The notes under the pieces are model-generated. The model saw only the letters and a program-made list of their open reading frames with translations. It had not been told where the DNA came from and made no database searches. Positions 3,178-39,036 of a stretch of 64,000 nt of DNA are shown here, piece after piece (within the stretch, counting starts at the first letter, position 1; every line of letters begins with the position of its first letter). Origin of the DNA: Escherichia phage vB_Eco_F26; the sequence record OP870145.1; one strand, written 5' to 3'. A program made the position numbers and the translations under genes.

Positions 3178-4593
3178 TTATGGATAGGTATAGATGATAC
3201 CAGTTTCTAAAGCAGTTTTATGAATGATGTATCCATTACGCGATTCTTGGACATCAACTTCTGGATAGTCTTTAATCATCTTCTGAAGAGTGTAACGATG
3301 CAGGTAGTATTTACTATCTGGGTCGTCAGTTTTCCAATCTTTACCTTCTTCGGTCATTTTTTGGATTTCATCCATAACCCACCAACCGCACCAGATATAA
3401 GCTGAAGTACGATGTGGAAGAGGATGAACATAAGGTAGTTCACCTTCTGGTTCAATTGGAGTCCGTTCAGCAATAACAACTTCAGCTGTTGAACTAATTG
3501 TCTTTGAAGTGTAATTATCTTTAGTTAATACTGCTTCAACTTTAATTGTATGAGTACCCGCTGAGGAGGTATCAATACTATAAGTATTAGTAGAATTACT
3601 TTCTGCTACGTTGTCTTTCTTCCAAGAGTACACAATATTAGTATCACCAGGAGCACCAGTAACAGATGCTGTTAAAGTTGCAGTTCCACCAACAGTAGTA
3701 TTAACTGATGGCGGAGATAAAGAAATGGTGGCACTATTAAATGTCGCATTATTAGTTACTACTGTTGCTTCTGCTGAAATTTCTTTTGTAACATAATTTG
3801 TTGCAGAAACAGATGCGGTGCATTTAAGAGTTTTACTTCCGACTTCGGTCGGAGTGAATTTATACGTAGCAGAAGTTGCATCCGGAATATTACTGTCATC
3901 CATTGACCATTGGAATGTTATAGTAGCACCTGAAGGTGCACTAGAGACATTTGCAGTTAAAGTAATAGGAACACCAAAGACTGTAGTCGGAGACTCGGGT
4001 GTAATTTTTAGCGTCGAAGAATTAGCCTTTTTATTTACAGTCAAAGAAACCGCTGATGATTCTACTGTTTTATCAACGTAATCAGTTGCAGTCACTGTGA
4101 CAGAGCAAGTTATAGACTTAGTTCCTTCAGTTGTTGGTGTATATTCAAAGGTTGATTGCTTTTGACCGTCAACATCGACCCCGTCAACTTTCCATGTATA
4201 ATCAATAGCAGCACCAATAGGTTGATTGCTTACATTAGCAGTGAATGTTGTTGCTGTTCCAATTTCTACTGCCGCAGGAGAAGCCGGAGTAACAGTGATA
4301 GTGGAATTATTTTCTTTCTTATTAACAGTGATAGTTGTTGATGCTTCAGCTATTTCCGGATCTCCTGCGGAAAGTGTATTAGTTGCAACCACTTTAATTT
4401 TTTTTGTTCCTGCTGGAGAAGCAAGAGTATAATCCATTGTAGCAGCCGTAGAGCCCTGTGTTATATCATCTACAGTCCAGACGTATGTAATAGTACCGTC
4501 TGGGGTTTCACCTGCAGGTGTAGCAGTGAATGTTTGTGAACCTCCAATAACCCCTGTAGGAGTTAGAGGAGATAACGTGACAGTGAATGCCAT
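3178..4593 (-). CDS. hoc: Hoc, highly immunogenic outer capsid protein, with four tandem Ig-like domains
   Basis: 471 aa; four ~95-aa Thr/Ser-rich repeats plus C-terminal capsid-binding domain ...ELPYVHPLPHR...WCGWWVMDEIQK...IIYTYP. Confidence 0.85.
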   Translation of the reverse strand: MAFTVTLSPLTPTGVIGGSQTFTATPAGETPDGTITYVWTVDDITQGSTAATMDYTLASPAGTKKIKVVATNTLSAGDPEIAEASTTITVNKKENNSTITVTPASPAAVEIGTATTFTANVSNQPIGAAIDYTWKVDGVDVDGQKQSTFEYTPTTEGTKSITCSVTVTATDYVDKTVESSAVSLTVNKKANSSTLKITPESPTTVFGVPITLTANVSSAPSGATITFQWSMDDSNIPDATSATYKFTPTEVGSKTLKCTASVSATNYVTKEISAEATVVTNNATFNSATISLSPPSVNTTVGGTATLTASVTGAPGDTNIVYSWKKDNVAESNSTNTYSIDTSSAGTHTIKVEAVLTKDNYTSKTISSTAEVVIAERTPIEPEGELPYVHPLPHRTSAYIWCGWWVMDEIQKMTEEGKDWKTDDPDSKYYLHRYTLQKMIKDYPEVDVQESRNGYIIHKTALETGIIYTYP

Positions 4594-4602
4594 AAGTTAT
4601 CC

Positions 4603-5283
4603 TTATTTTAATGTTATGAAAGAAGAATTACGAGTTTCGCGAATTAGAACTGATCCATCGCGATTAATATAATAAATTAAGCTAAATAATGTTTGGTGTG
4701 CTGACGCATGTTCAAAACTAGTTGGGTGAGATTTCCAATCCGGAGTTTCAGCAATCCATTGATAAATCCACCAAGGAACAGTGCAGAATCCTGGATTTTT
4801 TCCAATCAGTTGAAGATTCGGACTAAAGTTTTCCGGAAGAGTAAATACAGACGGCTTTTCAGATTCAATAATCTCAGCTACAGCTTGTTCAAACTTTTCT
4901 TCAACAAACGGAGTGTCTTCAATCAAAACTGAGGTATTTTCAGGAATTTTATCCGTTTCTACTACTTCAATTTTAATGTCAGATTTAACCGGAGAATCAA
5001 TCAAAAGTGCTGCTTCTGGATTGACTTCTTCATCGTCATATTTTAATCCCTCTGCGGCATCAGCAGCATCAATTAAGTCTTTAATAGATAACCCATCAGT
5101 CTCCGGCATAGGTTCACTAGCGAGCTTCTGGAGGGCTTCTTCAATATCAACAACGATATTATCAAAAGATTTATTCTTTTTGACTTTTATACCAAACTGT
5201 TCAGCATATTCAGCTAATTTAGCTTTAGCTTCTTTATTATCATCAAGAGCCTTCAGCTCTGCAATATAATCTTTATCTATCAT
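4603..5283 (-). CDS. inh: Inh, inhibitor of prohead protease
   Basis: 226 aa acidic protein at T4 inh position between hoc and uvsW. Confidence 0.75.
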   Translation of the reverse strand: MIDKDYIAELKALDDNKEAKAKLAEYAEQFGIKVKKNKSFDNIVVDIEEALQKLASEPMPETDGLSIKDLIDAADAAEGLKYDDEEVNPEAALLIDSPVKSDIKIEVVETDKIPENTSVLIEDTPFVEEKFEQAVAEIIESEKPSVFTLPENFSPNLQLIGKNPGFCTVPWWIYQWIAETPDWKSHPTSFEHASAHQTLFSLIYYINRDGSVLIRETRNSSFITLK

Positions 5284-5296
5284 AATATTTCCTCAG

Positions 5297-5304
5297 TATA
5301 AATA
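5297..5304 (+). promoter_or_regulatory. late promoter TATAAATA upstream of uvsW
   Basis: exact TATAAATA about 30 nt upstream of uvsW ATG. Confidence 0.5.
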
Positions 5305-5333
5305 TAGATATATTTATTACATGGTATTTAGAC

Positions 5334-6845
5334 ATGACTGACATTAAAGTACATTTTTATGATTTTAGTCACGTGAGAATTGATTGTGAAGAAAGCACAT
5401 TTCATGAACTCCGTGATTTCTTTAGCTTTGAAGCTGATGGGTATCGTTTTAACCCTCGCTTCAGATATGGCAACTGGGATGGACGAATCCGTCTTTTAGA
5501 TTATAATCGTCTTCTTCCATTCGGTTTAGTCGGGCAAATTAAAAAGTTCTGTGATAACTTTGGCTATAAAGCCTGGATTGACCCACAGATTAACGAAAAA
5601 GAAGAATTATCAAGAAAAGATTTTGATGAATGGCTTTCTAAATTAGAAATCTATTCAGGAAATAAAAGAATTGAACCACACTGGTATCAAAAAGATGCAG
5701 TGTTCGAAGGATTAGTTAATCGTCGTAGAATTCTTAATCTTCCAACATCTGCAGGTAAATCGTTAATTCAAGCTCTGCTTGCTCGGTATTATTTGGAAAA
5801 TTATGAAGGTAAAATTCTTATCATTGTTCCAACAACTGCTCTAACAACTCAGATGGCTGATGACTTCGTTGACTATCGTTTATTCAGTCATGCAATGATA
5901 AAGAAAATTGGTGGCGGAGCATCAAAAGATGATAAATATAAAAATGATGCACCAGTCGTTGTTGGTACATGGCAAACTGTAGTAAAACAACCGAAAGAAT
6001 GGTTCTCACAGTTTGGAATGATGATGAATGATGAATGCCATCTTGCTACAGGAAAAAGTATTTCATCTATCATATCAGGTTTAAATAACTGCATGTTTAA
6101 ATTTGGTCTATCAGGTTCATTACGTGACGGCAAAGCCAATATCATGCAGTATGTTGGAATGTTTGGTGAAATATTTAAGCCAGTAACGACCTCTAAATTA
6201 ATGGAAGATGGACAAGTAACTGAGTTAAAAATTAATAGTATTTTTCTTCGCTATCCCGATGAGTTCACTACTAAATTAAAGGGAAAAACTTACCAAGAAG
6301 AAATAAAAATTATTACTGGGCTCAGTAAAAGAAATAAATGGATCGCTAAATTAGCTATTAAGCTTGCACAAAAAGATGAAAACGCTTTTGTCATGTTTAA
6401 ACATGTATCGCATGGTAAAGCTATTTTCGATTTAATTAAAAATGAATACGATAAAGTTTATTACGTATCAGGGGAAGTTGATACCGAAACCCGCAACGTA
6501 ATGAAAACCTTAGCTGAAAATGGTAAAGGAATAATTATAGTAGCTAGTTATGGTGTATTTTCTACTGGTATTTCAGTTAAAAATCTGCATCATGTTGTTT
6601 TAGCGCACGGCGTTAAATCAAAAATCATTGTATTACAAACAATCGGTCGTGTATTACGTAAGCATGGTTCTAAGACAATCGCAACTGTCTGGGACCTCAT
6701 AGATGACGCGGGCGTGGTTTCTAAATCAAAAACATCTTCTAAAAAATACTCGCATTTAAACTATCTTTTAAAACATGGACTTGATCGTATTCAGCGTTAT
6801 GCTGATGAAAAGTTTAATTATGTGATGAAAGAGGTTAAACTTTGA
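5334..6845 (+). CDS. uvsW: UvsW SF2 DNA helicase
   Basis: 503 aa; Walker A LPTSAGKS, DECH box; matches T4 UvsW length. Confidence 0.9.
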   Translation: MTDIKVHFYDFSHVRIDCEESTFHELRDFFSFEADGYRFNPRFRYGNWDGRIRLLDYNRLLPFGLVGQIKKFCDNFGYKAWIDPQINEKEELSRKDFDEWLSKLEIYSGNKRIEPHWYQKDAVFEGLVNRRRILNLPTSAGKSLIQALLARYYLENYEGKILIIVPTTALTTQMADDFVDYRLFSHAMIKKIGGGASKDDKYKNDAPVVVGTWQTVVKQPKEWFSQFGMMMNDECHLATGKSISSIISGLNNCMFKFGLSGSLRDGKANIMQYVGMFGEIFKPVTTSKLMEDGQVTELKINSIFLRYPDEFTTKLKGKTYQEEIKIITGLSKRNKWIAKLAIKLAQKDENAFVMFKHVSHGKAIFDLIKNEYDKVYYVSGEVDTETRNVMKTLAENGKGIIIVASYGVFSTGISVKNLHHVVLAHGVKSKIIVLQTIGRVLRKHGSKTIATVWDLIDDAGVVSKSKTSSKKYSHLNYLLKHGLDRIQRYADEKFNYVMKEVKL

Positions 6846-7534
6846 ATTATAAATTAATATATGATAATTTAATTAATAGAGCCCAGAATCGGGCTCGCCT
6901 TAATGGATACACTGAAACACATCATATAATTCCTAGATGTATGGGTGGTACAAATGATAAGTGTAATTTAGTAGAACTAACGGCTGAAGAACATTTTATA
7001 GCCCATAAACTTTTAGCTAAAATTCATCCAAATCATTACGGTATAATTAAAGCCGTTATATGTATGGGAATGAACTCAAAGACTCATGAAAGACACGTTA
7101 ATAAATCTTACGCGTGGGAACGTCGTAAAATGGCAGAACTTCAATCCGGCGAAGGTAATCCATTTTACGGAAAACACCATACGGAAGAACATAAACAATA
7201 TATGTCAAAACTCATGAAAAGTCGTCCAATTACATGGGGAAATAAAATTAGTAAAACTAAAAGAATGAACCCAACGAAATGGACTGAAGAAGCTAAAAGA
7301 TTACATTCAATCAATCAATCGGGTAAAAATAACGGCATGTATGGAAGGAAACATTCCGCTAAATCTATTCAGAAAATTAAAGATAACATGCCAGATAATT
7401 CAGGAGCTAATAACCCAGCTGCTAAACCTATAGAAGTAAATGGTGTTAAATATAAATGTATGAAAGATGCTTCTAAAGCTACTGGATTATCAATGTACAA
7501 ACTAAGAATACTTAGAAAAACAGTTAATTTATAA
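6842..7534 (+). CDS. Mob-type HNH homing endonuclease, free-standing, TTG start overlapping uvsW stop
   Basis: HHIIPRCMGG...NLVELTAEEHFIAH HNH motif, NUMOD3-like GxxNPFYGKHHTEEHK repeats; SD AAAGAGG 8 nt upstream of TTG; paralog of ORF 34989..35699. Confidence 0.8.
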   Translation: MNYKLIYDNLINRAQNRARLNGYTETHHIIPRCMGGTNDKCNLVELTAEEHFIAHKLLAKIHPNHYGIIKAVICMGMNSKTHERHVNKSYAWERRKMAELQSGEGNPFYGKHHTEEHKQYMSKLMKSRPITWGNKISKTKRMNPTKWTEEAKRLHSINQSGKNNGMYGRKHSAKSIQKIKDNMPDNSGANNPAAKPIEVNGVKYKCMKDASKATGLSMYKLRILRKTVNL

Positions 7535-7549
7535 GGGCTTCGGCCCTTT
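7534..7549 (+). terminator. GC hairpin (UUCG loop) after HNH gene
   Basis: aagggc-ttcg-gccctt. Confidence 0.4.
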
Positions 7550-7559
7550 GGAGAAAAAG

Positions 7560-7790
7560 ATGTTACTAGGATTTAAACAATTTCTTTATGAAGCTTCTAT
7601 TGATGAATTTATGGGTAAAATTGCCTCTTGTCAAACATTAGAAGGTTTAGAAGAACTTGAAGCTTATTATAAGAAAAGAGTCAAAGAAACTGAATTAAAA
7701 GATACTGATGACATCTCTGTAAGAGATGCTTTGGCAGGAAAAAGAGCTGAATTAGAAGATTCAGACGATGAAGTAGAAGAAAGCTTTTAA
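7560..7790 (+). CDS. uvsW.1: UvsW.1
   Basis: 76 aa from ATG at 7560 (tracker ORF extends upstream to a TTG); acidic C-terminus; T4 synteny. Confidence 0.7.
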   Translation: MLLGFKQFLYEASIDEFMGKIASCQTLEGLEELEAYYKKRVKETELKDTDDISVRDALAGKRAELEDSDDEVEESF

Positions 7791-7845
7791 ATTAAAAAAG
7801 GCCCAACCAAAAAGGAAGGGCCAAAACTATAGACTAAAGGTCACA

Positions 7846-8013
7846 CTATAGCAAAAGTTGTGTTTCATTTAATTGTTCTTCCGAACTTTCTGAAACTGGT
7901 AGTTCTTTAATGTAATTATAGCAAGGCCCAGGATGTACAGGACCTTTGTCTGTTTCAACAACCAATGCAGAATCGATTGGAGTTTTACAGACAACACAAA
8001 TCTTATCTGACAT
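7846..8013 (-). CDS. uvsY.-2-like small Cys-rich protein
   Basis: Start chosen at internal ATG with strong SD AAGGAG 6 nt upstream; CVVC...C motif. Confidence 0.55.
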   Translation of the reverse strand: MSDKICVVCKTPIDSALVVETDKGPVHPGPCYNYIKELPVSESSEEQLNETQLLL

Positions 8014-8136
8014 GATTGTCTCCTTTTGAATATAGTAATATTTATAAACCCATTTTAATCCGCATTTCTTGTACACGGATTAAGCAGGCTTCCATCTCTG
8101 CTAATAGTCGAAATACTTCTTTATAATCTGTCATAT

Positions 8137-8364
8137 TTACCCCATATCTCTCATATGCATATCAATGCCCATATCTTTAGAATAAAAATATTCATCAAGA
8201 TATCCGGCAAATTTTCCTTTAATATAAAGGACATCTTCACCACATGGGTGGTCGGCCAGGATACGAATATCCTGACGCTTAAGATTATGCTTTTTCATTA
8301 AGAATTGAATTTCCGTTTCAAATTCTTCTTCATAATTAAAAGCATCATCAATGTTATATCTCAT
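8137..8364 (-). CDS. uvsY.-1-like hypothetical protein
   Basis: 75 aa ORF, start overlaps uvsY stop. Confidence 0.55.
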   Translation of the reverse strand: MRYNIDDAFNYEEEFETEIQFLMKKHNLKRQDIRILADHPCGEDVLYIKGKFAGYLDEYFYSKDMGIDMHMRDMG

Positions 8365-34009: not shown

Positions 34010-34999
34010 TCATAATTTACAGGATGAACAATCTTCAGCTTTTGGAGTTTCTATTTCATAATCATCAGTGCCAGAACCATCGCGGGTATTATGATAATAG
34101 AAATTTTTTCCGCCAAAATACCAAAAATACAAAAGGTCATCAATCATTATTGACATTGGAACCTTTCCTTTTGGAAAAATCTGCGGGTCATAGTATGTAT
34201 TCGCTGAAGCTGATTGACATACCCATTTCAGCATAATAGCTACCTGCGTAAGATAAGGTTTATTACCTTTCTTAGCTAATTTCCATGTATAATCATAGAG
34301 GTCTATGTTATGCTCAATATTGGGCACGACTTGATTAAAGGAGCCCTCTTTTGATTCTTTAACAGAGACTGGTCCACGTGGAGGCTCGATACCGTTTGTA
34401 CTGTTAGAAACTTGGGAAGATGACTCACATGGCATAAGTGCTGATAATGTGCTATTACGGATGCCAAAGAGCTTAAGGTCTTCCCGCAGCGCCGACCAGT
34501 CACAAACGTATTTTGGAGCTGCGATTTGGTCAATCTTTTTATTGTACCAGTCGATAGGTAATTCGCCTCGAGACCAACGAGTGTCTGAATAATATTCGCA
34601 AGGTCCTTTTTCTTTGGCGAGCTTAATGGATGCTTTAATGAGTCCATACTGTAATCTCTCAAATAGTTCATGTGTTAAATCGTTAGCATCTTCATAAGAA
34701 GCAAAGTTGCTTGCCAGCCAAGCTGCATAGTTAGTAACACCTACACCGAGGTTACGACGCTTTTTAGCTTTTTCTGCTTCAGGAACTGGATATCCTTGAT
34801 AATCCAAAAGATTATCAAGAGCGCGAACTTGAACTTCTGCCAATTCATTAATTTTATCTTGGTCTTGCCAATCGAAGTTATCCAGTACGAAGGCAGAGAG
34901 AGTACAAAGCCCCACTTCTCCCTTGTTTTCAATAACTTTTATTGTAGTATACTCATCATCTTCGTAAAATTCATCTACAAATTCATAATCAATATTCAT
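34010..34999 (-). CDS. nrdA: ribonucleotide reductase large subunit, C-terminal fragment (NrdA-b)
   Basis: 329 aa; acidic 23-aa head then ENKGEVGLCTLSAF... NSTLSALMPCESSSQ ... YYHNTRDG. Confidence 0.85.
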   Translation of the reverse strand: MNIDYEFVDEFYEDDEYTTIKVIENKGEVGLCTLSAFVLDNFDWQDQDKINELAEVQVRALDNLLDYQGYPVPEAEKAKKRRNLGVGVTNYAAWLASNFASYEDANDLTHELFERLQYGLIKASIKLAKEKGPCEYYSDTRWSRGELPIDWYNKKIDQIAAPKYVCDWSALREDLKLFGIRNSTLSALMPCESSSQVSNSTNGIEPPRGPVSVKESKEGSFNQVVPNIEHNIDLYDYTWKLAKKGNKPYLTQVAIMLKWVCQSASANTYYDPQIFPKGKVPMSIMIDDLLYFWYFGGKNFYYHNTRDGSGTDDYEIETPKAEDCSSCKL

Positions 35000-35831
35000 T
35001 TAATTCTTCTACCTTTTTTCTAGTAATTCCTAAAGCTTTAGATGCTCGATGTATTGATTGATATTCTATACCGTTTATTTTTACAGCAATTAAGTTATGG
35101 GGTTTTAATCCCTTTGGATGAGGTTTACTGACGAAAACTAAATTATCAAGCTCTGAAATCTTATCCAATTTCTTACACTTAAATCCTTTGTGATGCGCCC
35201 GTTTACCTTTACAAACGGCTGACATTGCAGATGAATTTAAATTATGCTCTTTACAAAATTCGTTAAGACCTCGATGAATTTCCTCATGACCATCCGGAAA
35301 TGTAAACACCCAAGATGTTTGAAGTCGAGATTTAACTTCTGGAGACATAGGAATACCTTTGTTCCAAGCTGGTTTGCCTTTATTATTTTCAGATACAGAA
35401 ATAGCCAATTTTCTTCTAAGCCACCCATGGCGTTTATTGGTGTTCTTTCGTTCAATATTATCTTCAGAATAAACACACATCATATTAGCGGCAAATATCA
35501 ATTTATGATTATCTGGATATATCTTTACTAATAATTGATGAGCTATGTAATGCTCTTCTGGCGTCAAATCTACCAGGTTTTCCTTTGTATCAGAACCACC
35601 AATACACAGAGGTATAATATGGTGTGATTCGGTATAGCAATCTAATTTTCTGTTCTTAGCTTTAGAAATAAGGTTATTGTAAATTTTAGAATAATCCATA
35701 ACTTTTCCTCTTGTTATGGATTATTTATTAACGGTCTGTGTACTTTATTTGCTTTGAATTATACCGCCAGGATTAGCTTCATAAAACTTAGCTACATCCG
35801 ACTTCTTAATTTTGATTAAACGGGTTTGTTG
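34930..35831 (-). mobile_element. about 0.9 kb insertion splitting nrdA (HNH gene plus new stop/start tails)
   Basis: NrdA homology ends at ...IPTNDVNS (N-part) and resumes at ENKGEVGLC (C-part); intervening DNA holds HEG. Confidence 0.55.
34989..35699 (-). CDS. Mob-type HNH homing endonuclease inserted within nrdA
   Basis: 236 aa; HHIIPLCIGGSDTKENLVDLTPEEHYIAH; paralog of ORF 6842..7534; stop overlaps NrdA-b start by 11 nt. Confidence 0.8.
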   Translation of the reverse strand: MDYSKIYNNLISKAKNRKLDCYTESHHIIPLCIGGSDTKENLVDLTPEEHYIAHQLLVKIYPDNHKLIFAANMMCVYSEDNIERKNTNKRHGWLRRKLAISVSENNKGKPAWNKGIPMSPEVKSRLQTSWVFTFPDGHEEIHRGLNEFCKEHNLNSSAMSAVCKGKRAHHKGFKCKKLDKISELDNLVFVSKPHPKGLKPHNLIAVKINGIEYQSIHRASKALGITRKKVEELNEY

Positions 35832-37178
35832 GCTATTCACATCATTTGTTGGAATAGCAATTTCACAGCACAAGTTACTCTGACGAATAGGTGCCTTTTC
35901 ACGAATAAACGGAGTATAGTTATTCGTATTATCAATGAACTGCACATAAATCCTTGCTGTTCCTGATCGTTCAGTCATGAGCAATTCAAACAGTTCACGG
36001 GCTTTAATACGCTTTTTACGAATATTAGGGTCTTTTTCTGCGGCTTCGTATAATTCACGGAAACGGTCTTGGTCTTTAAAATAAGAATAATAAAGTTCGC
36101 CACCCATTTCATGCGGACTGAACAAAGTAATGTAATCGTTCTTTCCGAATCGTTCCATCATCAAATCATTCAGCTGAACACCATAATCCATGTGACGAAT
36201 GCGGTTTTCTTCTACGCCTTTGTTATTTTTCAAAACGAGAAGATTTTCAACTTCCAAATGCCAAATAGGATAATAAGCAGTAGCAGCGCCGCCACGAATT
36301 CCACCCTGTGAACATGATTTAACAGCAGTCTGAAAATGTTTCCAAAAAGGAATAACACCAGTATGGCGTACTTCACCCATGCCAATCTTAGAACCTTCGG
36401 CACGAATCATACCAACGTTAATACCAATTCCAGCGCGTTTAGAGATATATTCAACAATTGAAGCGGAAGCCTTATTGATAGACTTTAATGAATCACCTGC
36501 CTCAATAACAACACATGAACTAAACTGTCGAGTCGGAGTACGACAACCAGCCATAATAGGAGTTGGCAATGAAATCTGTCGAGTAGATACTGCTTCATAA
36601 AAACGAATAACATGTTTTAGTCTATCAACAGGTTCATCTTGATGCAATGCCATTCCAATAGTCATAAATGCAAACTGTGGGGTTTCATAAATTTGACCGG
36701 TGGTTTTATCTTTAACTAGATATTTTTCTTTTAATTGCATCGCCCCGGAATAAGTAAATTCCATATCCCGTTCGTGCTTAATTTTTGATTCTAAAAATGT
36801 AATTTCTTCTGCTGAATATTTTGACAATAATTCAGGGTCATATTTACCTTCATTTACACAGTAAGAAATATGGTCAATAAATGAACGCGGTTCATACTGC
36901 CCATAAACATGCTTACGAAGAGCGAACATTAAACAGCGTGCAGCTACATATTGATAATCAGGTTCTTCAACCGAAATAGAATTCGCAGCAGCCTTAATGA
37001 CAATAGTCTGAATATCATCAGTTGTCATTCCATCACGGAGATAAGATTTAATATTTTCATATAATTCATAAGGATCTACTGATGTTCCCTCAGCTGCCCA
37101 AGATAAAACTTTAATAATTTTTTGTGGGTCAAAGCTCTGAGAAACACCACTACTTTTGATAACATTAATTAATTGCAT
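35745..37178 (-). CDS. nrdA: ribonucleotide reductase large subunit, N-terminal fragment (NrdA-a)
   Basis: 477 aa; ATP-cone, CRTPTRQFSSC, ...RQSNLCCEIAIPTNDVNS then basic 28-aa tail. Confidence 0.85.
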   Translation of the reverse strand: MQLINVIKSSGVSQSFDPQKIIKVLSWAAEGTSVDPYELYENIKSYLRDGMTTDDIQTIVIKAAANSISVEEPDYQYVAARCLMFALRKHVYGQYEPRSFIDHISYCVNEGKYDPELLSKYSAEEITFLESKIKHERDMEFTYSGAMQLKEKYLVKDKTTGQIYETPQFAFMTIGMALHQDEPVDRLKHVIRFYEAVSTRQISLPTPIMAGCRTPTRQFSSCVVIEAGDSLKSINKASASIVEYISKRAGIGINVGMIRAEGSKIGMGEVRHTGVIPFWKHFQTAVKSCSQGGIRGGAATAYYPIWHLEVENLLVLKNNKGVEENRIRHMDYGVQLNDLMMERFGKNDYITLFSPHEMGGELYYSYFKDQDRFRELYEAAEKDPNIRKKRIKARELFELLMTERSGTARIYVQFIDNTNNYTPFIREKAPIRQSNLCCEIAIPTNDVNSQQTRLIKIKKSDVAKFYEANPGGIIQSK

Positions 37179-38020: not shown

Positions 38021-39036
38021 CATTATGTTCAGATAAGGTCGTTAATCTTACCCCGGAATTATATCCAGCTACATGTCACCATGCAGAGCAGACTATATCT
38101 CCAACTTGTTAAAGCAAGTTGTCTATCGTTTCGAGTCACTTGACCCTACTCCCCAAAGGGATAGTCGTTAGGCATTTATGTAGAACCAATTCCATTTATC
38201 AGATTTTACACGATAAGTAACTAATCCAGACGAAATTTTAAAATGTCTAGCTGCATCTGCTGCACAATCAAAAATAACCCCATCACATGAAATCTTTTTA
38301 ATATTACTAGGCTTTTTACCTTTCATCTTTTCTGATATTTTAGATTTAGTTATGTCTGAATGCTTATGATTAAAGAATGAATTATTTTCACCTGAACGAT
38401 TTCTGCATTTACTGCAAGTATAAGCAGAAGTTTGTATGCGAACACCGCACTTACAAAACTTATGGGTTTCTGGATTCCAACGCCCGTTTTTACTTCCGGG
38501 TTTACTGTAAAGAGCTTTCCGACCATCAGGTCCAAGTTTAAGCATCTTAGCTTTAACAGTTTCAGAACGTTTCTTAATAATTTCTTCTTTTAATGGATGC
38601 GTAGAACATGTATCACCAAACGTTGCATCAGCAATATTGTATCCATTAATTTTAGAATTAAGCTCTTTAATCCAAAAATTTTCTCGTTCAATAATCAAAT
38701 CTTTCTCATATGGAATTTCTTCCAAAATAGAACATTCAAACACATTACCATGTTTGTTAAAAGACCTCTGAAGTTTTATAGAAGAATGGCATCCTTTTTC
38801 TAAATCTTTAAAATGCCTCTTCCATCTCTTTTCAAAATCTTTAGCACTTCCTACATATACTTTATTGTTTAAAGTATTTTTAATCTGATAAATTCCGCTT
38901 TTCATAAATACCTCTTTAAATATAGAAGTATTTATTAAAGGGCAGTCCTACAATTTAGCACGGGATTGTCTACTAGAGAGGTTCCCCGTTTAGATAGATT
39001 ACAAGTATAAGTCACCTTATACTCAGGCCTCAATTA
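38021..39036 (-). mobile_element. td group I self-splicing intron (1016 nt)
   Basis: 5' end UAAUUGAGGCCUGAGUAUAAGGUGACUUAUACUUG... after exon CUUGGGU; 3' end ...AACAUAAUG; contains I-TevI ORF. Confidence 0.85.
38168..38905 (-). CDS. I-TevI GIY-YIG homing endonuclease
   Basis: 245 aa; MKSGIYQIKN...KVYVGSAKDFEKRWKRH GIY-YIG motif; C-terminal zinc finger and HTH. Confidence 0.9.
   Translation of the reverse strand: MKSGIYQIKNTLNNKVYVGSAKDFEKRWKRHFKDLEKGCHSSIKLQRSFNKHGNVFECSILEEIPYEKDLIIERENFWIKELNSKINGYNIADATFGDTCSTHPLKEEIIKKRSETVKAKMLKLGPDGRKALYSKPGSKNGRWNPETHKFCKCGVRIQTSAYTCSKCRNRSGENNSFFNHKHSDITKSKISEKMKGKKPSNIKKISCDGVIFDCAADAARHFKISSGLVTYRVKSDKWNWFYINA

Follow-up and report, generated by a model that had tools for sequence, protein, structure and literature searches.

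A MobE-like HNH homing endonuclease gene at the uvsW/uvsW.1 junction of T4-like phages, with a very probable TTG start

Gene order at the uvsW locus

The window analyzed here, a stretch of 64,000 nucleotides (nt) of Escherichia phage vB_Eco_F26 (OP870145.1), carries a homing endonuclease gene of the HNH type between the helicase gene uvsW and uvsW.1. The three open reading frames (ORFs) follow each other on the same strand (lengths in amino acids, aa; pN/pS, ratio of nonsynonymous to synonymous polymorphism):

5334..6845, + strand: uvsW helicase gene, 503 aa (ORF list; Pfam UvsW_N at 145 bits, plus ResIII, DEAD and Helicase_C)
6842..7534, + strand: HNH homing endonuclease gene, MobE-like and free-standing, 230 aa (NUMOD3, PHROG 655, identity to T4 MobE, pN/pS)
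7560..7790, + strand: uvsW.1, 76 aa (Pfam UvsW-1 at 105 bits; 98-100% identity to endonuclease-less relatives)

An earlier, sequence-only reading of this DNA had described a 230-aa HNH ORF sitting between two genes that are neighbors in T4. Both statements stand, since the ORF list and the Pfam and PHROGs matches agree on the ORF at 6842..7534, and in T4 and most close relatives without the endonuclease gene uvsW and uvsW.1 are adjacent. The gene beside uvsW is a genuine HNH-type homing endonuclease gene and, within the T4 "mob" family, an ordinary, already annotated and uncharacterized member.

Domains and family of the endonuclease

The protein belongs to PHROG 655, "homing endonuclease" (E = 3e-60), and contains NUMOD3 in two stretches (51.8 bits against a Pfam cut-off of 20.4). 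T4 MobE shares 51% identity with it along the N-terminal 106 aa. A profile built from 18 homologues matched both the HNH domain of McrA (6ghc, E = 6.6e-4) and the DNA-binding domain of I-TevI (1i3j, E = 3.8e-5), the Pfam match to the latter being sub-threshold. Its parts are arranged as follows (pLDDT, predicted local distance difference test; AF2, AlphaFold model):

6908..7006, + strand: HNH catalytic core, residues 23-55 (YTETHHIIPRCMGG..N42..EEH51FIAH55; alignment, profile, AF2)
7121..7207, + strand: first NUMOD3 repeat, residues 94-122 (Pfam NUMOD3, two stretches, E = 7e-14)
7313-7393, + strand: second NUMOD3 copy, approximately residues 158-184 (coordinates from the repeated motif G-x-N-N-x-M/F-Y-G-K/R-H)
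7427..7522, + strand: C-terminal beta-beta-helix-turn-helix DNA-binding module of the I-TevI / NUMOD1 type (weak Pfam I-TevI_DNA-bd; profile and Foldseek matches to 1i3j; pLDDT 82-89)

In the homologue alignment H28, N42, H51 and H55 are invariant, and the H27/H28 set is invariant or nearly so. The AF2 model has a mean pLDDT of 77, and its confident N-terminal 77 residues hold a beta-beta-alpha unit made up of strands 25-28 and 43-46 and helix 48-61 (pLDDT 84-93), as in HNH enzymes, while the C-terminal module is modeled as strand-strand-helix-turn-helix (pLDDT 82-89). Both hallmarks of this kind of enzyme are therefore present, an HNH catalytic motif in a beta-beta-alpha fold (from the alignment, 6ghc, AF2 and the identity to MobE) and a modular DNA-binding region with NUMOD3 repeats and a helix-turn-helix. 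Foldseek found 1i3j as the best match and returned the expected families, all with E-values >0.05 and usable for single domains only; the lack of a whole-protein match is explained by the modular and flexible nature of the enzyme. No Rfam intron family matched at E <= 1 in 5000-8300. The label of group I intron-encoded endonuclease found in some GenBank records was rejected for this reason and because uvsW and uvsW.1 are separate, complete ORFs in gene-less relatives. The domain, profile, model and invariant-residue evidence, together with the absence of an intron or Rfam family, indicates a free-standing HNH/NUMOD homing endonuclease gene of the T4 "mob" type, and NUMOD3, PHROG 655, the profile matches, the AF2 model and the identity to MobE thus bear out the assignment of the sequence-only reading.

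Distribution and annotation

A megablast search with 6300-7800 matched 501 T4-like (Tequatrovirus) records, and 48 of them cover the endonuclease gene. The 61-nt junction at 6812-6872 is present in exactly these 48 carriers (identity of 100% in 37, a single mismatch in 11), which include T6, Yersinia phage PST and ACG-C40. In the non-carriers, T4 among them, uvsW is followed directly by a hairpin and uvsW.1. The gene is missing in T4 and most close relatives, and comparison of the junctions therefore gives a gene that is not universal at this locus. Farther away, a protein search retrieved homologues at 54-70% identity, and all 11 that could be placed by exact-sequence look-up lie between uvsW and uvsW.1. 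A tblastn search of GenBank phages gave 74 records with a full-length homologue, and all among the matches listed adjoin the helicase gene. By genus, carriers belong to Tequatrovirus, Dhakavirus (PSD2002), Gaprivervirus (TH40) and Gualtarvirus (Morganella phage Rgz1), with further ones among Klebsiella, Citrobacter, Salmonella and Proteus phages. The picture is that of sporadic presence among close relatives at a fixed site (48/501 records, 12 lineages, 74 GenBank records).

The 693-nt ORF with its TTG start has already been annotated, as "homing endonuclease" in T6 (AP018814) and as "mobD / MobE" in PST. Across records the product names range from hypothetical protein to "group I intron endonuclease," "GIY-YIG" or "mobD," or the ORF is shortened, an inconsistency to which the TTG start leads. 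In the records of ESh30, ESh36, FL08 and W143 the 61-nt junction overlaps only the helicase coding sequence (CDS), even though the ORF is annotated further in; a start farther downstream than the TTG was probably chosen in these annotations. BF15 matches the endonuclease protein in two pieces, and this copy may be frameshifted. A table in a 2010 review lists three mob-like genes and one other HNH gene for T6 (PMC2993671); in the literature we found no description of the uvsW-junction endonuclease gene or of homing endonucleases started by TTG.

It should be noted that in the T4 reference (NC_000866, 3678-5441) uvsW appears as a single 587-aa ORF fused with uvsW.1, in a record that notes sequence discrepancies. 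The literature (PMC1524935) and other T4-type genomes have uvsW and uvsW.1 as two ORFs with a hairpin between them. An ancient insertion of the endonuclease gene that split a fused UvsW-UvsW.1 protein was also considered and is not supported, the UvsW.1 homologues being stand-alone in 75 of 75 cases (52-96 aa) in a search that reaches fairly close relatives only.

Boundaries of the inserted segment

The sequence-only reading had the gene inserted between uvsW and uvsW.1 and a GC hairpin following it before the uvsW.1 Shine-Dalgarno (SD) sequence. The gene does sit at the junction, but the insertion is not a clean intergenic one: about 150 nt of uvsW have been replaced by a version at ca. 75% identity, and the end of the endonuclease ORF is the old uvsW tail. 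The hairpin is likewise where it was described (7535-7546), but it does not belong to the element, since it follows the uvsW stop in gene-less relatives. The features that define the boundaries are these:

6690..6845, + strand: substitute uvsW 3' end (ca. 50 codons), traveling together with the endonuclease gene (sliding identity, base-by-base comparison)
7517..7534, + strand: relic of the ancestral uvsW tail, AAA ACA GTT AAT TTA TAA (K T V N L stop), now the end of the endonuclease ORF
7535..7546, + strand: hairpin GGGC-UUCG-GCCC of the uvsW/uvsW.1 spacer, ancestral (fold -9.3 kcal/mol), followed by the uvsW.1 SD GGAG at 7550-7553

Non-carriers read ...AATTACGTAATGAAAACAGTTAATTTATAAGGGCTTCGGCCC... 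at the junction, and the endonuclease ORF of the window ends in ...AGAAAAACAGTTAATTTATAAGGGCTTCGGCCC. Homology to non-carriers resumes at 7517, so that the last five codons and stop of the endonuclease (K-T-V-N-L-stop) are the ancestral uvsW tail, kept in frame. This relic is identical to the uvsW end of the endonuclease-less L007 and L008, and to that of T4 if the recorded sequence discrepancy is allowed for. The uvsW tail of the window differs (K-E-V-K-L-stop, AAAGAGGTTAAACTTTGA) and holds both the SD and the TTG of the endonuclease gene, with UvsW length kept at 503 aa. In a sliding comparison with three non-carriers, identity is 96-100% up to 6689, 60-84% in 6690-6839, and 98-100% from 7517 onward; the unit by which carriers and non-carriers differ therefore extends from ca. 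6690 to 7516 and comprises the substitute uvsW 3' end plus the gene. The diverged tract of ca. 150 nt is strictly linked to the endonuclease gene: the 171-nt uvsW 3' end is found at >=95% identity in exactly 48 records, with one other at 90-95% and the rest at <=90%.

The same anatomy is repeated in other lineages. Between the carrier L025 and L013 the uvsW body has ca. 99.7% identity (4 mismatches in ca. 1,340 nt), the last 150-160 nt 77%, and uvsW.1 98%. Roth17 (carrier) and Roth20 diverge by 3.5% in the body, 23% in the last ca. 150 nt, and 2% to the right, homology resuming in Roth17 at AAYCTATGA, that is, the last two codons and the stop. The PSD2002 endonuclease ends in M-K-Q-V-D-L, again a relic uvsW tail, and the gene of TH40 lies between the copies of a 17-nt direct repeat (ATTAAACAGGTGGAAAT). 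In clades whose uvsW and uvsW.1 overlap (ATGA), the endonuclease stop likewise overlaps the uvsW.1 start; with overlaps on both sides, a coupled junction thus houses the element and is re-created at each of its ends.

These boundaries bear on the alternative that the gene is ancestral at uvsW/uvsW.1 of T4-like phages and has been repeatedly lost, its patchiness coming from deletion with no homing spread. A single gene family at a single junction in at least four named genera plus the Klebsiella, Citrobacter, Salmonella and Proteus phages is what such a history would leave, and the divergence of the endonucleases (52-70% aa identity) is of the same order as that of their hosts. However, three independent pairs have near-identical flanks around a sharply bounded foreign segment (ca. 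150 nt of uvsW plus the gene), a pattern that marks recent gain through recombination, not precise loss. Moreover, an exact deletion would need to restore a different uvsW 3' end. We consider this alternative improbable.

The substitute tract probably covers the target that the endonuclease would recognize in endonuclease-less alleles, and the substitute uvsW tail is probably an allele immune to cutting. A narrower target site was sought in the differences shared by the pairs and given up: a Lys-to-Val change in the GVKPKS codons is common to two pairs and not to the third, and only the ca. 150-nt boundary is reproducible.

Start codon and Shine-Dalgarno sequence

The signals for initiation lie within the last codons of uvsW:

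6828..6834, + strand: SD AAAGAGG, within the final uvsW codons Lys-Glu-Val (sequence; anti-SD duplex -6.5 kcal/mol)
6842..6844, + strand: endonuclease TTG start, overlapping the uvsW TGA at 6843-6845 (sequence, ORF list, conservation)

Start and stop share the letters TTGA (6842-6845), the spacer from GAGG to TTG is 7 nt, and the RNA structure predicted around the SD is weak (-8.7 kcal/mol). At the SD site endonuclease-less relatives read AAAACAGTT, without an SD. An in-frame TAA (6836-6838) closes the endonuclease frame two codons upstream of the TTG, and the TTG is followed by no other in-frame ATG, GTG or TTG until codon 34, which already lies past the conserved His27/His28 of the HNH motif. 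The sequence-only reading had pointed out that no in-frame ATG covers the conserved N-terminus, and the TTG is indeed the sole canonical start that keeps it. The alignment of the homologues extends to residue 1 in every case, M1 and Y3 being invariant and N2 almost so. This alignment and the low pN/pS of 0.03-0.09 make the TTG start well supported, and the endonuclease very probably begins at this weak codon overlapping the uvsW stop.

The position of the start is conserved across 12 lineages, five of which use TTG, one GTG and six ATG at the identical codon. It overlaps the uvsW stop in 12/12 (NTGA in 11, TAATG in one), the stop/start overlap expected of a translationally coupled gene pair. 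A TTG coupled to the uvsW TGA behind an AAAGAGG SD had been claimed from the sequence alone; start, stop and SD can be read directly, and the position is kept in the 11 other lineages. Four of the five TTG lineages were examined for alternatives, and in each of them the stretch from the upstream in-frame stop to the conserved N-terminus holds the TTG as its sole canonical start. SD duplexes are -6.5, -6.5, -5.9, -6.5 and -2.8 kcal/mol in the TTG lineages, four of the five having a strong SD at the correct spacing, and -1.0, -3.0, -2.7, -1.0, -2.7, -5.9 and -1.0 kcal/mol in the ATG and GTG lineages. The SD is thus stronger with TTG (Mann-Whitney, one-sided p = 0.008, on lineages that are not independent). 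On a rough neighbor-joining tree the TTG lineages are scattered, and the start codon has therefore switched several times. Restraint of a toxic nuclease by a weak start and coupling, also suggested in the sequence-only reading, is a hypothesis already published for the T4 mob and seg genes (PMC2988022).

We also sampled the wider family through 77 IMG/VR loci of distant relatives (among the matches listed), in which 74 genes start with ATG. Two distant family members, the IMG/VR contigs L050 and L054, have a TTG start at position 2001 with CAGAGGTT before it, spaced as in the window, so that TTG with strong SD pairing also occurs outside the uvsW clade.

A different reading of the TTG is that of a decaying or silenced homing endonuclease gene, in which a mutation of ATG to TTG began the degeneration after the element had spread and hardly any protein, if any, is made. 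Decay is expected once homing endonuclease genes are fixed (T4 I-TevIII and the short, 141-aa T4 MobE are examples), BF15 matches in two pieces, perhaps through a frameshift, and ATG prevails in the wider family. Nevertheless, the gene is under purifying selection: the sampled Tequatrovirus alleles are intact in 9/9 cases, all 693 nt long with the TTG start, their pN/pS is 0.03-0.09 at pS of up to 0.16, and 27 of the 36 variable codons are synonymous only. The TTG is kept in 9/9 alleles, and the junction has no more than one mismatch in 48/48 records. Four other lineages (54-59% protein identity), with intact ORFs and conserved N-termini, have retained the TTG too, and a strong, correctly spaced SD accompanies it in 4/5 TTG lineages. 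Intact alleles, low pN/pS and synonymous variation argue against a dead gene, which we regard as quite improbable, and against initiation at codon 34 too. The latter, by which the first in-frame ATG would yield a nuclease-dead DNA-binding protein such as a repressor or domesticated factor, and which the four GenBank records with a seemingly downstream start might suggest, is very improbable given that residues 1-33, with the first His of the HNH motif, are conserved across all lineages (Y3, Y7, L10, Y23, E25 and H28 invariant), that no SD precedes codon 34, and that the internal Met is elsewhere or missing in other lineages.

A hairpin in the 5' coding region

Shortly after the start, the endonuclease gene contains a conserved RNA structure:

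6879..6896, + strand: hairpin GAGCCC-AGAATC-GGGCTC at endonuclease codons 13-19 (fold -13.2 kcal/mol, z -3.9)

A hairpin is found at this position in 12/12 lineages, with a stem of different sequence, a loop that is often GAAA, and a varying peptide. The strongest local structure of the whole gene falls in this region in 11/12 lineages, and a test by synonymous recoding gave P values of 0.002-0.07 per lineage. At the same codons T4 mobE has the hairpin UUCCCGAGC-UCAG-GCUCGGGAA. An internal terminator in the mobE 5' coding region ends about 30% of transcripts (PMC2988022), and we take the T4 hairpin to be this terminator; coupling and an internal hairpin had already been proposed together for mobE (PMC2988022). 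An intrinsic terminator at 6879-6896 was rejected, as the + strand has no U tract and the terminator scan flags the minus strand only. Possible roles for the hairpin are processing, RNA stability, pausing or weak termination. A family-wide feature was rejected as well: a comparable hairpin occurs at 6/77 of the wider-family loci only and is specific to the uvsW-junction clade and T4 mobE.

Proposed expression and homing

Two further features delimit the probable transcript:

5297..5304, + strand: T4 late-promoter consensus TATAAATA (exact pattern match; 30 nt 5' of uvsW)
7800..7822, unstranded: hairpin GGCCC...GGGCC with flanking A/T runs after uvsW.1 (sequence; site of the conserved bidirectional terminator)

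A pattern search for further exact copies of TATAAATA found none between uvsW and the endonuclease gene. With a late promoter before uvsW and none before the endonuclease gene, there is therefore probably one late uvsW-endonuclease-uvsW.1 transcript. The endonuclease gene would be transcribed with uvsW from the putative promoter at 5297, having none of its own, and the transcript would end at the conserved terminator after uvsW.1, which is bidirectional in T4 relatives (PMC1524935). Translation from the TTG at 6842 would occur by re-initiation at the uvsW TGA or by direct binding to the GAGG, and it is likely that the non-ATG start, the coupling and the hairpin at codons 13-19 serve to hold expression down and delay it. 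As a separate observation, TATAAATG at 7451-7458 matches the late-promoter consensus at 7/8 positions, inside the 3' part of the endonuclease gene and ca. 100 nt before uvsW.1; according to a review, seg and mob genes often harbor promoters that serve the genes downstream.

In a mixed infection the enzyme may cut the uvsW 3' region of phages without the gene, at an estimated ca. 150 base pairs (bp) upstream of the uvsW stop, and repair from the carrier genome would then copy everything from the cut site through the endonuclease gene. The cuts made by free-standing endonucleases lie hundreds to thousands of bp away from the endonuclease gene (PMC2988022), so that repair must copy all that lies between cut and gene. 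Such co-conversion during homing agrees with the sharp recombination boundaries of the three carrier/non-carrier pairs, whose left boundary at about -150 would fit a cut near there in non-carrier uvsW. The foreign, ca. 75%-identical final 150 nt of uvsW would probably leave carriers immune to the cut, with homology resuming exactly at the old tail.

Several points weigh against this account as a whole. The Pfam HNH model (PF01844) gives only 16.3 bits, below its gathering cut-off of 21.4, and the Foldseek E-values are weak. Six of the 12 lineages use ATG, so that the gene can do without a weak or non-ATG start. Part of the NTGA overlap comes free with the conserved Met-Asn start, because ATGAAY, found across the whole wider family, always contains TGA. 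The ideally spaced GAGG could drive independent initiation without coupling. The hairpin at 6879-6896 is followed by no U tract on the + strand and so is not a canonical terminator. The differences inside the 150-nt tract are not identical across the three pairs, so that the target site cannot be pinpointed, and the linkage between tract and gene could simply reflect suppressed recombination in diverged DNA. Finally, we found no expression, cleavage or inheritance data for this endonuclease in the literature. Even so, we hold with good confidence that the joint best explanation is a MobE-like free-standing HNH homing endonuclease gene that is probably cotranscribed with uvsW and translated from the TTG, and that would home together with the uvsW tail.

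A more specific proposal, made tentatively and with slightly less than even confidence, is that the mobile unit may be a cassette by which the host gene receives a new end. It would bring ca. 50 substitute uvsW codons (probably removing the cleavage site), an SD and start inside the last uvsW codons, an old uvsW tail preserving the uvsW.1 start signal, and a 5' hairpin conserved in structure; start codon and SD strength, co-varying across at least six phage groups, could then make it a naturally tunable expression module.

Comparison with known homing endonucleases

The closest known system is T4 MobE. Both proteins have the MNYxKIY start and the HHIIPRCMGG..N..EH motif, both starts overlap the upstream stop (TAATGA in T4; PMC2988022), both genes have a GC hairpin at the same codons (S-R-A-Q-A-R-E) of the 5' coding region, and T4 mobE also lacks a promoter of its own and depends on that of the upstream gene (PMC2988022). 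T4 mobE differs in its nrdA/nrdB site, in encoding 141 aa, compared with 230 aa including two NUMOD3 repeats and a C-terminal helix-turn-helix here, and in its ATG start; the hairpin of the uvsW-junction gene is without a U tract. Activity and trans-homing have been shown experimentally for T4 MobE, whereas for the uvsW-junction endonuclease both are predicted. T4 SegE, encoded between inh and uvsW, resembles it in flanking uvsW and cutting the uvsW of phages without segE (PMC2988022), and there too the part of uvsW next to the endonuclease gene is diverged between carriers and non-carriers. However, SegE is a GIY-YIG enzyme, its gene is found on the opposite flank of uvsW behind an upstream promoter of its own, and the window lacks it.

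Insertion inside a host reading frame with the host gene remaining functional is known from Aeh1 mobE in nrdA and T4 mobA in gene 39/60 (PMC2988022). Here the insertion is five codons from the uvsW end and the host protein is not split; the lost codons are replaced by the substitute tail, so UvsW keeps its full length. With I-TevI the uvsW-junction endonuclease has in common the NUMOD3 repeats and a C-terminal helix-turn-helix resembling 1i3j, but I-TevI is a GIY-YIG enzyme of the td group I intron, and no intron was detected at the uvsW junction.

For T4 homing endonucleases this is a well-resolved comparative case, with a clade faithful to uvsW|uvsW.1 across several genera, and it shows such genes fitting into a translationally coupled operon without harm to the neighbors. 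The 12 lineages offer a natural series of start codons and SDs with a covarying hairpin, usable to test restraint by coupling and weak initiation. The gene leaves the understanding of homing endonuclease function unchanged and is no new kind of system.

Other mobile elements and genes in the window

At 4603-5442 segE is absent: inh (4603-5283, minus strand) is directly followed by uvsW (5334), at a place where T4, T6 and PST carry segE. The first ca. 100 nt of uvsW (5343-5442) have 72-82% identity to segE carriers and 96-100% to segE-less phages, and this diverged 5' end fits the known SegE target in uvsW. Among relatives, segE and the uvsW-junction HNH gene occur in all four combinations of presence and absence.

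A paralogous HNH/NUMOD gene (34989-35699, 236 aa, minus strand), with 33% identity to the uvsW-junction endonuclease, splits nrdA into an N-terminal (35745-37178) and a C-terminal part (34010-34999), both on the minus strand. The break is just after the active-site stretch NLCCEIAIPT, like the "genes in pieces" of Aeh1 nrdA/mobE. At least 80% of this 3.4-kb nrdA region is covered by 32 phage records, and two reductase ORFs plus a homing endonuclease are annotated in 15/15 of those listed.

An ORF of 245 aa at 38168-38905 (minus strand) is of the GIY-YIG type and has a C-terminal NUMOD-like stretch, RSGENNSFFNHKHSDITKSKISEKMKGKKPSNIKKISCDGVIFD; the homologue profile had matched these same residues to the DNA-binding domain of I-TevI (1i3j), and the ORF therefore resembles I-TevI, the td intron endonuclease. 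The minus strand at 3178-4593 encodes a Hoc-like head decoration protein with immunoglobulin (Ig) repeats, of 471 aa compared with 376 aa in T4 Hoc (1131 nt in NC_000866), a surplus of roughly one extra Ig-like repeat.

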